Source of the DNA: Rhodospirillaceae bacterium
GTDB taxonomy: Bacteria; Pseudomonadota; Alphaproteobacteria; Rhodospirillales; Rhodospirillaceae
Assembly (NCBI GenBank): GCA_041919675.1
Contig: JAYRTJ010000006.1
Coordinates: 1,622-65,621 of the forward strand
Direction: 5' to 3'
DNA: 64,000 bases
Shown here: in pieces, positions 3,601 to 51,124 of the stretch
Layout: each line of letters starts with the position of its first letter
How positions within the stretch are numbered: the first letter of the stretch is position 1
The notes under the pieces: model-generated
What the model was told of the DNA's origin: nothing
What the model saw: only the letters and a program-made list of their open reading frames with translations
The model's database searches: none
Made by a program: the position numbers and the translations under genes

Positions 3601-5916
3601 TTAGAAGCTGTAGTTCACGCTGAGCTGAGCGGCGCGACGGTCGCCCGGCGTCGCCCAACCGTTGTTACGGATGCGGATGAAGTACTTCTTGTCGAAGATG
3701 TTGTTGACGTTCAGCTGCACACCCAGATTTTCCATGATCTGGTAGCTGGCCATCGCACGATGCGTCCAATAGCCGTCCGTCGTATACAGCGCGCCCGACG
3801 TATTGAGATACCAGCGGCCCTGATAGGTGGCGCCGTAGCCGAGCGTGATGTTGAACGGCAGCGTATAGGTGGTCCACAGGCTGACGGCATGATCCGGCAC
3901 GTTGCCGAGCTCGTTGCCGGCCTGCGGATCGGGAAGCGCGGGCGTATTGCCGCAACCCGTGGCGCCGGGCGTGCGTAGGCAGAACTCGGACACGCTGCGG
4001 ATGATCTTGCTCTTCAGGTAGGTATAGTTGGCGAACACCATCCATTCTGGCGTGATGGTGCCGGCGGCGCCGAGCGCAATCCCATCCACCCGCGCGCTGC
4101 CGTCGAGCTGCTGCTCGGGCACGATCGGGTCGTTCGACGCCACGCGGAAGTTGGTACGGGCGTTGCGGAACAGCGAGCCCGTGAGCGAAAGCTGGTTTTC
4201 GAGGAGATTCCACTTCGCGCCGATTTCGTAGTTCTTCGCGGTTTCGGGGTCGACACTGCAGGTCGCGGCCGTGCACGAGCCGTTGACCGAGGTCTTGGAC
4301 GGCGCCTTCGAGTTCCCGTAGGCGACATAGAGGCTGGCTTCCGGCACCGGCTTATAGACGGCGCCGACGCGGTACGAGAACAAATAGTCTTCGTTCTCGA
4401 ACACTTGGCCCTGCGAGGTGAATGTTCCGTTGGTATAGGTGGCGGTCGTGTGCGTGCCGTCGTTGTGCTCGTAACGCAAGCCGCCGTTGATTTCGAACTG
4501 CGGCGTGATCTCCGCGGTTTCGAACAGGTAGATCGCTTGGTTCTTGAGCGTGCCGTCCTGCGAGGCGGCCTGGATGAAGTTGACCGGGCCGGTGTAAGTC
4601 GTATCCGGGTTCGAGATGTTCATCAGCGGGTAGGTCGGCGTGACGTTCGCCGCCGTACGCTGGATGTTGCCGTTGTCGAGATGGAACGTCTCGCTGGAGA
4701 CGCCGATGCCGAGCACCGTGGTGTGGCGGACATCGCCGGTCATGAAACGCGAGGTGAGATCGAGCTGATTATAAAAGTTGGTGTTCTTGGTATCACGCGT
4801 GGTACCGCGCGGACCGCTCGGCAGGAAGGTGCCGGCCGGCGTACAAGCCGCGCCCGTCGACGGATTGATACCGGCCGACGAACACCAGGTGCCCTGCGGG
4901 GGATTGACCACCGAGTACTGGGTGACCTGCTGATAGCGGGTCAGATTGCGGACCGAGAAATTCTCGTCGAAGTCGTGCTGAATGATGGCGGTGCCGGCAT
5001 CGAGGTTGATGCGCTGCACATCCATATTGGCGTAGCCGTAATAGAGGCCTGGATCCGACCCGGCGATGGCGCCGTTGTTGAAGGCGTTCTTGAAGTAGCC
5101 CACGCCGTATTGCGGCGTGTTGTTGTCGTGCTGATGCACGAAGCTGAGGGTGAAACGCGTCGGCGTACCGAGGCCCAGCGCGATCGACGGTGCGATGCCC
5201 CAGCGCTTGGCCTCTTCGACCTTACGGCCAGGCATGTTCTGGCTGTGGCCCATGAGGTTCAGGCGGATCGCGGAGGTCTCCGTGATAAGCTGATTGGTGT
5301 CGACGGTGCCGCGGAAGTAGCTGTCGGTGCCGACGCCGGCCGACAGGTCCGTGAACGGTTGGGCCTTCGGCGTCTTTGAAACGATATTGATCGTCCCGCC
5401 AACGGAGCCAGAGCCGCCGTAAACGGAGTTGGCGCCGTTGACGACTTCGATCTGCTCAAGGTTGAACGGATCGGAGCGGGTGTACTGGGCGCTGTCGCGC
5501 ACGCCATCGACGGTGATGTCGCTGTTCGCCGTGAAACCGCGCAGGTTGACGGAATCGCCGTAACCGCCGCCGCCTTCACCGGCGCCGAACGTAATGCCGG
5601 GAACGGTGGACAGAACTTCGCGCAGGCTCATCATGTTCTGTTCGCGGATGACCTCCGCCGGGATCACGGTGATGGTCTGCGGCGTGTCGAGCAGCGGCGC
5701 GGTGTATTTCGGCGAGTCCGGGATCTCGACTTTATATTCTTGGGGCGCGTCTTCCTCGACGCCGACGGCCGGGACGGCCAGGGGCTGGCCGCTCTGCGCG
5801 AACGCGGGCGCGCTGAAGACCACGGCGGTGGTGCTCAAAAGAGCGTAAAGTGCGCCGCGGCTGCCACGGTCGCGGGTGAAGGCCATGTCGGAGGCCGGCA
5901 TCGTTCTCGACGTCAT
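3601..5916 (-). CDS. TonB-dependent siderophore receptor
   Basis: Signal peptide ...AFAQSG, a plug region (ETPQTITVI, NLRGF), a long beta-barrel and terminal ...LSVNYSF. Fur-box-like site lies upstream. Confidence 0.9.
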   Translation of the reverse strand: MTSRTMPASDMAFTRDRGSRGALYALLSTTAVVFSAPAFAQSGQPLAVPAVGVEEDAPQEYKVEIPDSPKYTAPLLDTPQTITVIPAEVIREQNMMSLREVLSTVPGITFGAGEGGGGYGDSVNLRGFTANSDITVDGVRDSAQYTRSDPFNLEQIEVVNGANSVYGGSGSVGGTINIVSKTPKAQPFTDLSAGVGTDSYFRGTVDTNQLITETSAIRLNLMGHSQNMPGRKVEEAKRWGIAPSIALGLGTPTRFTLSFVHQHDNNTPQYGVGYFKNAFNNGAIAGSDPGLYYGYANMDVQRINLDAGTAIIQHDFDENFSVRNLTRYQQVTQYSVVNPPQGTWCSSAGINPSTGAACTPAGTFLPSGPRGTTRDTKNTNFYNQLDLTSRFMTGDVRHTTVLGIGVSSETFHLDNGNIQRTAANVTPTYPLMNISNPDTTYTGPVNFIQAASQDGTLKNQAIYLFETAEITPQFEINGGLRYEHNDGTHTTATYTNGTFTSQGQVFENEDYLFSYRVGAVYKPVPEASLYVAYGNSKAPSKTSVNGSCTAATCSVDPETAKNYEIGAKWNLLENQLSLTGSLFRNARTNFRVASNDPIVPEQQLDGSARVDGIALGAAGTITPEWMVFANYTYLKSKIIRSVSEFCLRTPGATGCGNTPALPDPQAGNELGNVPDHAVSLWTTYTLPFNITLGYGATYQGRWYLNTSGALYTTDGYWTHRAMASYQIMENLGVQLNVNNIFDKKYFIRIRNNGWATPGDRRAAQLSVNYSF

Positions 5917-44656: not shown

Positions 44657-44744
44657 CGGGCCCATATCTCGTGAGCGTAGAAAGTAGCGTGTTTCCACTC
44701 GATGCCTCGACACCACGGTATGACTTAGCAAAGGGGATAAACGG

Positions 44745-45098
44745 ATGAACATGATGAGCACCGCCACGGCGAACCTCACCGTATTTGAGGAAGACGCCCT
44801 CGCTTTGACCCAGGCTGCGCTGGAAATCAGCCGCGCCTATGAATCCAAGGACGAACGCCGCCTCGCCGCCGCGCTCGACCGCAATCTGAAACTGTGGGTC
44901 GGTATCCGCACCCTGGTTTCCTCGGCGGAAAATCCGCTGCCCATGCAGATCAAGGACAACCTGATCCGCCTCTCCAGCTTCGTTGCCCAGAAGACCTTCG
45001 AAATGCAGAACGGTGCGAACGCGAAGACCATCGAGTCGCTCGCGAACACCAACCTGCAGATCTCCGAAGGTCTGCTGGACAAGCGCAGCGCTCACTAA
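44745..45098 (+). CDS. flaF: Flagellar biosynthesis regulator FlaF
   Basis: 117 aa: ...ALTQAALEISRAY...LDRNLKLWVGIRTLVSSAENPLPMQIKDNLIRLSSFV...TNLQISEGL matches the FlaF family layout. No flbT or flagellin gene nearby. Confidence 0.8.
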   Translation: MNMMSTATANLTVFEEDALALTQAALEISRAYESKDERRLAAALDRNLKLWVGIRTLVSSAENPLPMQIKDNLIRLSSFVAQKTFEMQNGANAKTIESLANTNLQISEGLLDKRSAH

Positions 45099-45121
45099 GC
45101 GCCCGCTTCTTAGCAGTCATA

Positions 45122-45500
45122 CCGCTGGCGAAACGCCGCTCCGAAAGGGGCGGCGTTTTTGCATTCGATGCGATTCTTTATCCCGCGCGCGAGGCGCGCG
45201 GGTGGCCGCTGGCGAAACGCCGCTCCGAAAGGGGCGGCGTTTTTGCATTCGATGCGATTCTTTATCCCGCGCGCGAGGCGCGCGGGTGGCCGCTGGCGAA
45301 ACGCCGCTCCGAAAGGGGCGGCGTTTTTGCGTTCGCTGCGATTCTTTATCCCGCGCGCGAGGCGCGCGGGTGGCCGCTGGCGAAACGCCGATCCGAAAGG
45401 AGCGGCGTTTTTGCGTTCGCTGCGATTCTTTATCCCGCGCGCGAGGCGCGCGGGTGGCCGCTGGCGAAACGCCGCTCCGAAAGGGGCGGCGTTTTTGCGT
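45122..45500 (+). repeat. 84-bp tandem repeat, 4.5 copies, each with two hairpins
   Basis: Copies start at 45122, 45206, 45290, 45374 and 45458. Each unit holds a cccgcgcgc-gag-gcgcgcggg hairpin plus a terminator-type hairpin with a T-run. Confidence 0.95.
45131..45160 (+). terminator. Rho-independent terminator-type hairpin (first of five in phase)
   Basis: aaacgccgctcc-gaaa-ggggcggcgttttt: a 10-bp stem (one G-U pair), GAAA tetraloop and T5. Repeats at 45215, 45299, 45383 (two stem substitutions) and 45467. Confidence 0.8.
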
Positions 45501-45519
45501 TCATGCTATACACCGTTCC

Positions 45520-45972
45520 ATGACCTTCACACCCGCCGATCCGGATTACCGCGCGCGTTTCGCGCAGAGCTTCGCCCGCCAGACGGCGATGCAGACTCTC
45601 GGCATCACGGCCGCGGAGATCGCGCCCGGCAAGATCACGCTTGTCATGCCGTTCTCGGAGCGTCTCAGCCAGCAGCACGGCTTCATCCATGCGGGCGTGA
45701 TCACCACGGGCCTGGACAGCGCCTGCGGTTACGCGGCCATGTCGCTGATGCCGGCGGACGCGGCGGTGCTGAGCGTGGAGTTCAAAGTCAATCTGCTGGC
45801 CCCGGCGCACGGCGATTCGTTTGTGTTCAGAGGCGAGGTGCTTAAACCGGGGCGCACGATCACGGTTTGCGAAGGCAAGGCTTATGCAATTACAAACGGC
45901 CGGGAAAAGCTGATCGCCGCCATGACGGCCACGATGATGGCCATCGTGGGCCGCGAGAGCATACAGGGGTAA
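45520..45972 (+). CDS. PaaI-family hotdog-fold thioesterase
   Basis: MTFTPADPDYRARFAQSF...QQHGFIHAGVITTGLDSACGYAA...LSVEFKVNLLAPA. The track ORF 44983..45972 is an artefactual read-through of the repeat array. Confidence 0.85.
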   Translation: MTFTPADPDYRARFAQSFARQTAMQTLGITAAEIAPGKITLVMPFSERLSQQHGFIHAGVITTGLDSACGYAAMSLMPADAAVLSVEFKVNLLAPAHGDSFVFRGEVLKPGRTITVCEGKAYAITNGREKLIAAMTATMMAIVGRESIQG

Positions 45973-46918: not shown

Positions 46919-47063
46919 AAGAGGTCCCTCCCCGGGAAAGATGTGGCGGCTACCCTAGCCCGGGATTTGTAACCGGGAAAGCGCGCGACATGCGCGACAA
47001 CGCGCCAAACCGGTAAAATGCGCGTGGCATCAATGATGTGCACGGCGATGTTGCGCGCGACAT

Positions 47064-48425
47064 TCACGCGACATCACGCGACATTGTGGCGGCGTCTTGT
47101 GATGAGGCGGCGGCGACCTCCCATTTCTTGGGGCCGTCGACGCCGGAACGCTTGGCGCGGACCGCCCCGTGGCGTTGAAGCTGGGCCATGAGAAGGCGCG
47201 CGGTTTGGGCATTGCGGACCGAGGGCGGGCCGGCGCGGTAGATATCGCGCAGCTCGACCACCTGCCCGGCGCGGGTGCGCTGGAGCCATGCGAGCAGGAG
47301 ATCGGCTTCTTCCAGTTCGCGTGTGACGGCCGTAAAGTCGGCAATATGCAGGGCTTCGGCCGCGTAGTAACGCGCGAGCGTCATGCCGGCGGTCATATGC
47401 GACGCACTCAGCTCGCTCAGGCCGGGATCTTCAAAAAACGCGGTCACAGCGGCGAGTCGCGCCGCATGTTCGGGCAAGCCGCCCGCGAGCGCACGCACGC
47501 TCGACAACCGCGCGCCATCGGCCATTTCAGCTTCGATCTCCCGCGCGAAGGCGAACCAAGCCTGAGCGGCGTCACGCGACAACGCCAGCACACGGCGGGT
47601 GTTCGGCTCCTCGCGCATGACATGTTCGACCAGACGCTGCGCATAAGCGGTGAGCGCGGGGTCAGGCGTTTCATGGCCTCCCTCGTCCGCCGCCCAAGTC
47701 CGCGCACCAATAAGCGAGGCGGGATAAACCGCGAGCAGACGCCCGAACAGATCATGGCGCGCGAGGCCGGGATCGGCCAGAAAAGCCCGCGCATCCCTGG
47801 GCGTCGCGACGACATGGGCGGAAAGACGGGCGTCTGCGTTCGCGCCATTCCACAAGGCGCACAAGCCGAGCGCATCCAGACGCTTGCGCTCCGGCCCATG
47901 ACCGACAAGCGCGGTGCAATCCTCCGCCACAAGCAAGGCGCGCGGCGACATATCCACCCAGGCGAAGCTTCTGGCCACGGCGCCTTCGCGCAGGAAGTGG
48001 GGTTTCAGCCGCGGCAGGCTGCGCCCCTCCTTCTCCATGGCCGCGCGGTAGAGATCGTAAACGGGGTCTGTGACCGTGCGCGCTTCGAGGGCGCGCAGCG
48101 GCGCCAACGAAAGAGCTGTGGCCGCGCCGGCATGCTCGCCGCTTTCGGCGATGGTGAGGAAGAACGCCGAGACCGGGCGGATTTCGCCGGTGGGCAGGCG
48201 GAGATCGATGTGGCGCTGCGCGATGAGCGCGGCGACGGAGAGGACCGCGTGGGCGGCGAGCGCGGACGGGGTTTGGGTGCGGACGGCGATGGCGGAGGCC
48301 GCGGCGGTGAGGGTGGGGCCGAGGGACACGAGCGGGAAGTCGCAAGCGAGGGAACGCGGATGGAACAGAGAGGCCGCCCGCGCTTGCGATGATGAAGGTT
48401 CAGCGATGGGTTCCAGTTGCGCCAT
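47064..48425 (-). CDS. DUF3987 (YfjI-like) protein, typical of integrative or phage-derived elements
   Basis: Layout and length match the YfjI/DUF3987 family (from memory). AT-rich divergent promoter region upstream. Start trimmed to ATG 48425 (MAQLEPIAEP...). Confidence 0.65.
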   Translation of the reverse strand: MAQLEPIAEPSSSQARAASLFHPRSLACDFPLVSLGPTLTAAASAIAVRTQTPSALAAHAVLSVAALIAQRHIDLRLPTGEIRPVSAFFLTIAESGEHAGAATALSLAPLRALEARTVTDPVYDLYRAAMEKEGRSLPRLKPHFLREGAVARSFAWVDMSPRALLVAEDCTALVGHGPERKRLDALGLCALWNGANADARLSAHVVATPRDARAFLADPGLARHDLFGRLLAVYPASLIGARTWAADEGGHETPDPALTAYAQRLVEHVMREEPNTRRVLALSRDAAQAWFAFAREIEAEMADGARLSSVRALAGGLPEHAARLAAVTAFFEDPGLSELSASHMTAGMTLARYYAAEALHIADFTAVTRELEEADLLLAWLQRTRAGQVVELRDIYRAGPPSVRNAQTARLLMAQLQRHGAVRAKRSGVDGPKKWEVAAASSQDAATMSRDVA

Positions 48426-48592
48426 GGGGTCACCTTGTAGTTGTTTCAGGGAAAAATAAACATACCAGGGACTTTTTGTCAATAAAATAGTGAGTCCACG
48501 GCTGGGCCCGGATTATAATGTTCTTGTTTTGTTCTAAATATCGGCATAAGTTCCTGTTCCCTCACAAAATGGGGCTGATGCAGGAGGCGAAG

Positions 48593-48870: not shown

Positions 48871-49110
48871 ATAACGACTTCTAAAACAACAAACGACCCC
48901 TAAAACATCAAACGACCCCTAAAACATCAAACGACCCCTCCCTCGCCCTCCCCTTTCAGGGGAGGGAAAAATTAAACGGAGCCGCCCTCGCTTGATCCTT
49001 TTTTTCCCTCGCCCTCCCCTTTCAGGGGAGGGAAAAATTAAACGGGGCCGCTGTCGCTTGATCCTTTTTTTCTCTCCTCTTTCAGGGGAGGAGAAAAATT
49101 GAATGGAGCG
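48871..49110. repeat. Composite repeat: 19-bp tandem (about 3.5 copies), then 66-bp units (about 2.6 copies) of the same family as 31351-31477
   Basis: aaacgacccctaaaacatc appears twice exactly, with degenerate flanking copies. Then ccctcgccctcccctttcaggggagggaaaaattaaacggRgccgc..cgcttgatccttttttt starts at 48940 and 49006, with a degenerate copy at 49072. Confidence 0.85.
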
Positions 49111-51052: not shown

Positions 51053-51124
51053 TCGGAGCGGTGGGTCTGCGCTTTTTAGTCGGAGCGGTGGGTCCGCACT
51101 TTTTAGTCGGAGCGGTGGGTCCGC
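51053..51124. repeat. 27-bp tandem triplication spanning the dksA stop codon
   Basis: tcggagcggtgggtYgcRctttttag at 51053 and 51080; a third copy (51107) forms the last codons of dksA. Confidence 0.9.

Follow-up and report, generated by a model that had tools for sequence, protein, structure and literature searches.

This study focused on a question raised by the interval between two genes of a Rhodospirillaceae bacterium, flaF and a gene for a PaaI/4HBT-type thioesterase (paaI) downstream of it: why is it filled with an 84-bp unit repeated head to tail, each copy carrying a strong hairpin followed by a run of T? The whole stretch of DNA that was analysed, 64,000 nucleotides long, is referred to as the window, and coordinates are those of the window unless a related locus (prefix L) is named. 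A preliminary description had proposed that the array acts as an unusually strong transcriptional insulator or, alternatively, that it is a series of tandem small RNAs released by read-through from flaF. Comparison with related genomes points elsewhere. The array is probably a locus-specific, copy-variable tandem repeat (VNTR or minisatellite) derived from a duplicated flaF terminator module, with redundant termination as its effect at most, and it is neither a set of RNA genes nor protein-coding.

Structure of the array

The tandem repeat search (TRF) delimited an array at 45122-45506 with a period of 84, 4.6 copies, 97% matches and no indels, and the score of 721 made it by far the strongest tandem array in the 64-kb window. 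The features of the locus are collected in Table 1. Unit starts proposed earlier, at 45122, 45206, 45290, 45374 and 45458 (the last one partial), were borne out by the sequence and by TRF, as was the beginning of the array 24 nt past the flaF stop codon (45096-45098). The 31-mer of the terminator occurred five times in the window, always inside the array and with two mismatches in the copy at 45384, while the 27-mer of the second hairpin (hp2) occurred four times, 4/4 of them exact; the chance expectation from shuffles was 0 for both.

The shared substitutions said to separate copies 1 and 2 (GCATTCGATGCG, A-type) from copies 3 and 4 (GCGTTCGCTGCG, G-type) were found as described, and so were the two changes in the terminator stem of copy 4, where an A/G mismatch results from C>A at 45391 and an A-U pair replaces a G-U pair through G>A at 45401. 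With both changes the hairpin energy is -17.6 kcal/mol, compared with -23.4 kcal/mol without them. The G>A change recurs in relatives, GGAGC being the common allele (L056, L030, L057). The terminator that forms the partial fifth unit is homologous to the single terminator preceding paaI in L005.

Three forward open reading frames run through the array. They stay open because 84 nt equals 28 codons, for which homology is not needed, and the earlier judgement that they are spurious is upheld by the units of relatives, which at 85 and 86 nt break all frames; a protein-coding array is rejected on this ground. Further intergenic tandem arrays occur in the window at 48873-49109, with 19-bp (3.5 copies) and 66-bp (2.7 copies) hairpin units, and at 51053-51124, with a 27-bp unit in 2.7 copies. 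Local tandem duplications seem to arise readily in this lineage.

Table 1. Features of the flaF-paaI interval and its flanking genes (window coordinates)
Feature	Position	Strand	Basis or remark
flaF CDS, 117 aa	44745..45098	+	Pfam FlaF PF07309, E 2e-16
flaF 3' leader, with conserved TCATACCG motif at 45117-45124 straddling the array start	45099..45129	+	
Hairpin 1, GAAACGCCGCTCC-GAAA-GGGGCGGCGTTTT, T-run 45156-45160	45130..45160	+	Putative ancestral flaF terminator
Hairpin 1, copies at +84	45214-45244, 45298-45328, 45382-45412, 45466-45496	+	
Hairpin 2 (hp2), CCCGCGCGC-GAG-GCGCGCGGG, 9-bp GC stem	45182..45202	+	-19.3 kcal/mol
hp2, copies	45266-45286, 45350-45370, 45434-45454	+	
Unit 1, 84 bp, A-type GCATTCGATGCG	45122..45205	+	TRF, alignment of units
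Unit 2, identical to unit 1	45206..45289	+	Alignment; exact short-read contigs
Unit 3, G-type GCGTTCGCTGCG	45290..45373	+	Alignment; run X2 contigs exact over 45301-45366
Unit 4, G-type, stem with C>A at 45391 (mismatch) and G>A at 45401	45374..45457	+	
Unit 5, partial, terminator only, then unique sequence toward paaI	45458..45506	+	
PaaI/4HBT-type thioesterase gene, 150 aa	45520..45972	+	Pfam 4HBT PF03061, E 4e-11

The flaF terminator

Each unit had been described as holding two hairpins, which holds true; the stem of the terminator, given as 10 bp, has instead 9 GC-rich pairs (one of them G-U) and is lengthened to 12-13 pairs by flanking A/T pairing. This hairpin (hairpin 1) begins 31 nt past the flaF stop, has an energy of -23.4 kcal/mol and a GAAA loop, and is followed by T5, so that its U-tract of 5 bases is under the canonical 7-9. 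A simple consensus terminator scanner did not flag the terminators of the array, which is probably a limit of its tail rule, in that the flanking A/T pairs are counted into the stem and too few T are left.

For comparison, 51 loci encoding FlaF relatives were gathered from species-representative genomes, together with 10 loci encoding the identical FlaF. All of them belong to Rhodospirillaceae-type MAGs of uncultured bacteria, recovered from sludge, wastewater and fresh water. All of the 33 orthologous loci (33/33) have a strong hairpin with a T-run 25-45 nt past the flaF stop, with energies of -15 to -28 kcal/mol. When these 33 loci were aligned (alignment A1), the 13-pair stem showed standard pairs in 95.6% of cells, and both sides had changed in 8 of the 13 pairs. 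This covariation was equalled by none of 500 shuffles, and controls in which the stem was slid paired at 49-62%. Examples of compensatory pairs are GCCGCTCC/GGGGCGGC, GCCCTCC/GGAGGGC, GCCCCCG/CGGGGGC and GGCGCTTCC/GGAAGCGCC. Because its position is conserved and its stem covaries across the 33 loci, the GAAA-loop hairpin is to be read, from sequence comparison, as the ancestral and selected intrinsic terminator of flaF. The earlier recognition of the GAAA hairpin and its T5 as a real intrinsic terminator thus gains the support of relatives, in which it is conserved and covarying behind flaF.

Upstream of the terminator stem, at a distance of 6-14 nt, lies the motif TCATACCG, which is nearly invariant across alignment A1 (33 loci) although the terminator stems have changed completely. 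Within the array it is kept by copy 1 only, the later copies reading GGTGGCCG. It may be a conserved 3'-UTR element, for example a processing or binding site.

Copy number in related genomes

Close relatives proved freely variable in the number of units, with 1, 2.3, 2.5, 2.6 and 4.6 copies (those of relatives are lower bounds, since short-read assemblies can collapse identical units), a degree of variation that speaks against the functional readings put forward earlier. The locus L056/L066 (GCA_050247565.1), with flanks 99.5-99.6% identical to the window and with FlaF and PaaI proteins identical to those of the window, has 2.6 units, and its flaF-paaI gap measures 254 nt against 421 nt in the window. 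It carries private variants, namely an 85-nt unit with CTCGCGCGC-AGAG-GCGCGCGGG and CCGCCGGCG at one junction, that are also present in contigs of the sequencing runs X3 and X4. L003 has 2.3 units of 84 nt and a deletion that begins inside the third terminator stem and takes most of paaI, leaving its last ~117 nt. L057 has 2.5 units of 86 nt, mutually diverged, and L004 has two terminators 108 nt apart, in which the post-stop leader is part of the duplicated piece and the boundary is a different one. A single terminator is found in each of L005, L006, L008, L030 and L058; in L005 the order is flaF-terminator-paaI, without hp2.

Behind its one terminator, L058 has a diverged homologue, in single copy, of the second half of the unit (GCTGCGAT...CGCGCACGCGACGCGCATGGGACGG). 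Because this locus holds the spacer half in single copy, the unit can be recognized as the terminator plus the spacer that originally lay behind it. The module that was duplicated would accordingly comprise the Rho-independent terminator of flaF and ~45 nt of following spacer, including a GC-rich palindrome. The junction between units, GGGYGG followed by CCRCTGGC, is common to several lineages with 2.3 to 4.6 units, and among these L003 and L057 belong to lineages ~6-12% diverged in DNA. A single initial duplication, by illegitimate recombination or by replication slippage beside the stable hairpins, may have founded the array, and copies would later have been gained and lost by slipped-strand mispairing or by unequal recombination between units. 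The identity of units 1 and 2 suggests that the last expansion was recent. That units with the same junction persist in L003 and L057 may be due to selective retention rather than simply to slow loss.

Relatives further removed carry other duplications immediately after the flaF terminator: a 17-bp tandem repeat in L023 (~4390-4440 of that locus), and in L007 (~4500-4540), L009 (~1080-1115) and L024 (~4540-4570) an additional hairpin of related stem, the loop being inverted in L007. In L004 (4351-4570; JAYRJU010000001.1), terminator copy 1 is like that of L003/L006 and copy 2 like that of the window and L030; such mixed alleles suggest that strains have recombined or that the metagenome assembly is chimeric.

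Support from sequencing reads

Public short-read DNA and RNA runs were examined as Logan contigs. DNA contigs broke at the array, as expected. Contigs of 114 nt were recovered from three independent runs (X1, X6, X15), a length of 84+30, as a cyclic unitig has when k=31. The X15 and X6 contigs matched the window exactly, on 45122-45235 and 45217-45330 respectively, and because of these two the head-to-tail junction is proven independently of the assembly of the window. Run X2 contained both A-type and G-type units. The depth of the unit contigs was 1-1.7x that of the flanks, against ~4x expected (X1, X2, X6, X15), and words specific for unit 4, including C>A at 45391, were found in none of eight public DNA runs. 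The figure of 4.6 copies and the C>A of unit 4 are thus provisional readings of the assembly of the window. GC-rich hairpins are commonly under-covered in sequencing, and the low depth of the units may be due to such a bias or to a heterogeneous population.

Transcripts of flaF

Six sludge metatranscriptomes (X25-X28, X30, X32) contained RNA contigs of flaF, which extended from about 44691 to 45103 or 45125 at a depth of 5-11. No RNA contigs were found on 45126-45620 in four runs at 80% likeness, or on 45104-45900 in four runs at 95% likeness. For L006, which has a single terminator, the sole RNA contig, of low depth, ends 29 nt past the flaF stop. These are low-depth assembled contigs and not mapped 3' ends, and short structured RNAs are poorly captured in such data; with this reservation, the contigs fit termination at the first terminator and argue, weakly, against abundant RNAs from the array. 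Transcripts of flaF would end at the first T-run (45156-45160), and units 2-5 would catch the small fraction that reads through, being redundant and near neutral with a reduction of any read-through into paaI as their consequence.

The longest flaF RNA contig (X25, 413 nt, exact) begins at 44691, which is 54 nt upstream of the ATG. This position may be the start of the flaF transcript, inside a gene-free leader of 520 nt.

The second hairpin

No T-run lies next to hp2 on either strand. The possibility that it serves as a terminator on the minus strand was rejected, as it is followed there by ATAAAGAATC. Some hp2 hairpin is present in all lineages that bear the array; in relatives it has a shifted register or is a mismatched hairpin only, at -12 to -17.5 kcal/mol, and the single-copy homologue in L058 is weak (-7.8 kcal/mol). 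Its structure is to be regarded as putative.

Searches for dispersed copies and known RNAs

Dispersal of the REP/BIME or MITE type was looked for and no further copies of the unit modules were found elsewhere in the 64-kb window, in ~400 kb of the other loci fetched from relatives or in the two related genomes. Among 185,579 species-representative genomes, the unit occurred only behind flaF in two related MAGs, apart from one chance match, in which hp2 matched a coding region, without a hairpin, of an Aggregatilineales (Chloroflexota) chromosome (L055). JGI metagenome contigs scanned for the unit junction and for the hp2 module gave 0 matches. The array therefore shows the properties of a VNTR, with a copy number that differs among close strains, non-coding units and a single locus within the window and the related representative genomes.

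No Rfam family was found inside 45122-45506 at E<=1. Outside the array, OmrA-B scored 22.9 bits (gathering score 40) over the flaF stop on the minus strand, and RCNMV_5UTR and mir-14 matched the repeat at 48.9 kb; all three are sub-threshold chance hits. No sigma-70-like promoter was predicted at the array. The hairpins have the loops GAAA and GAG, and nothing resembling a single-stranded seed. The folding z-score of the array was -6.6, a value that any array of hairpins would give.

Alternative explanations

It is rather unlikely that the array was selected as a multi-terminator insulator, or as a copy-number rheostat in which stacked terminators set how much transcription from the flaF promoter reaches paaI and their number tunes that gene. 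Five strong, co-oriented terminators do stand between flaF and paaI, several lineages retain arrays that share the junction, and paaI, whose start lies 23 nt beyond the final T-run and which has neither a Shine-Dalgarno sequence nor a canonical promoter, could depend on read-through. However, one terminator suffices in L005, which has the same gene order; L003, L057 and L004 have lost paaI yet keep 2-2.5 units, so the array is not tied to this gene; copy number differs by two units between strains that are 99.5% identical; and TATACA before the ATG (TATAGT in L005) could give paaI a leaderless transcript of its own. The unusually strong insulator that the preliminary description had in mind as a selected design is not sustained by these observations: insulation is an effect at most, and selection for it is without support here. 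A terminator VNTR working as a heritable and reversible dial, with slippage steps setting read-through from the flagellar-class flaF promoter into paaI, is distinctly improbable, control of this read-through by copy number being required by nothing found here; if true, it would be a contingency-type locus built from terminators and not from homopolymer tracts, and a new kind of switch. The other function once considered, an array of tandem small RNAs set free by read-through from flaF in the style of CcsR/cuckoo or rtT RNAs, is very improbable. Its architecture resembles that of those systems, with repeated units of two hairpins behind a small gene, and the folding z-score, although expected of any hairpin array, agrees with it. 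This idea did not survive the comparison, in which no Rfam match, no promoter and no C-rich anti-SD motif (CCUCCUCCC) in the GAAA and GAG loops were found, each unit has a terminator of its own at the end, flaF and not a DUF1127 gene lies upstream, close relatives lack the unit or have it once, and no RNA contigs lay on the array in six metatranscriptomes that did contain flaF mRNA.

A reading at the level of DNA, with the palindromes as phased protein-binding sites or as a recombination site linked to a nearby DUF3987 islet, is extremely improbable: the palindrome is degenerate in relatives and occurs nowhere else in the window or the related genomes, and arrays are present without the islet in L003 and L057, even though the window has four perfect 9-bp palindromes at a spacing of 84 bp (8 helical turns) and the islet lies 1.5 kb away. 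It is also unlikely that, in a repeat which is itself real, the 4.6 copies and the variants of unit 4 are artefacts of assembly or consensus. Such an artefact would account for the low depth of the unit contigs (only 1-1.7x the flanks in X1, X2, X6 and X15) and for the lack of unit-4 words in all eight runs (0/8), and it would be favoured by the identity of units 1 and 2 over 168 bp, which is beyond short-read resolution. On the other hand, internal A-type and G-type units are both present in run X2, the ordered variants A, A, G, G* (G* being the altered unit 4) resemble real sequence and not an assembler loop, GC-rich hairpins tend to be under-covered in general, and at least two units are proven in independent assemblies. 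The reading as a copy-variable repeat of the flaF terminator module is the one that the comparison favours.

Relationship to known repeat systems

Intergenic VNTRs and minisatellites are well known, such as the mycobacterial MIRU-VNTRs and the tandem repeats of Ehrlichia and Wolbachia that are used for strain typing. Like these loci, the array consists of locus-specific, head-to-tail units of some tens of bases that are intergenic, 97-100% alike and variable in number between near-identical strains. It differs from usual VNTRs in having units that comprise a whole intrinsic terminator and another hairpin, and from MIRUs, which are a dispersed family with many loci, in that the unit was found at one locus within the window and the related genomes searched. 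Stacked intrinsic terminators are familiar from rrnB T1-T2, where T1 and T2 differ in sequence and do not vary within the species. In both systems one gene is followed by a succession of Rho-independent terminators of the same orientation, from which a multiplicative reduction of read-through is expected, whereas the copies described here are recent duplicates of one terminator and polymorphic in number. The 178-bp repeats distal to tyrT/tyrV of Escherichia coli, which correspond to rtT RNA (Rfam RF00391), lie behind a tRNA gene. There too the 3' flank of a gene, including the terminator region, has been duplicated head to tail into a short array, but in the present case the upstream gene is protein-coding and not a tRNA gene, RF00391 gave no match and there was no sign of a released RNA.

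The CcsR1-4 and cuckoo (ar14) small-RNA arrays of Rhodobacter and rhizobia lie behind a DUF1127 gene (PMC8034643). Each CcsR unit has two hairpins, with loops that carry the CCUCCUCCC anti-SD motif, and there is one terminator at the end of the operon (PMC8034643). The similarity to the present array lies in a small upstream alphaproteobacterial gene followed by ~4 tandem two-hairpin units. The differences are that the CCUCCUCCC loop motif is missing, that the upstream gene is flaF and not DUF1127, that every unit has a terminator, that Rfam gave no match and that the array is not conserved in relatives. In this company the array is an ordinary feature, a member of the intergenic VNTR class that acts like stacked terminators. 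Arrays of terminator hairpins can mimic batteries of small RNAs or repeat proteins, and recognizing them prevents mis-annotation. The locus could be usable as a strain-typing marker for this uncultured lineage of activated-sludge Rhodospirillaceae, and it adds one more case in which the stretch beside a stable terminator hairpin seeds local tandem duplication.

Neighbouring genes

The gene call for paaI is the same in L056/L066. The -10-like sequence TATACA upstream of it (45507-45512) ends 7 nt before the ATG, and TATAGT occupies the same place in L005; judged by this arrangement, the paaI mRNA may be leaderless and a transcript of its own. Most close relatives (L003, L004, L006, L007, L030, L057, L058) lack the paaI-like gene, and its place in L057, L058 and L004 (=L059) is taken by short ORFs (44-67 aa) on the minus strand. 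A segment of ~1.5 kb (window 46945-48500) next to the rhodanese gene contains the DUF3987 gene (47064-48482). This segment is absent from L003, L004, L006, L030 and L057 and is present only in the 99.5%-identical L056, and from this distribution it looks like a recent insertion.
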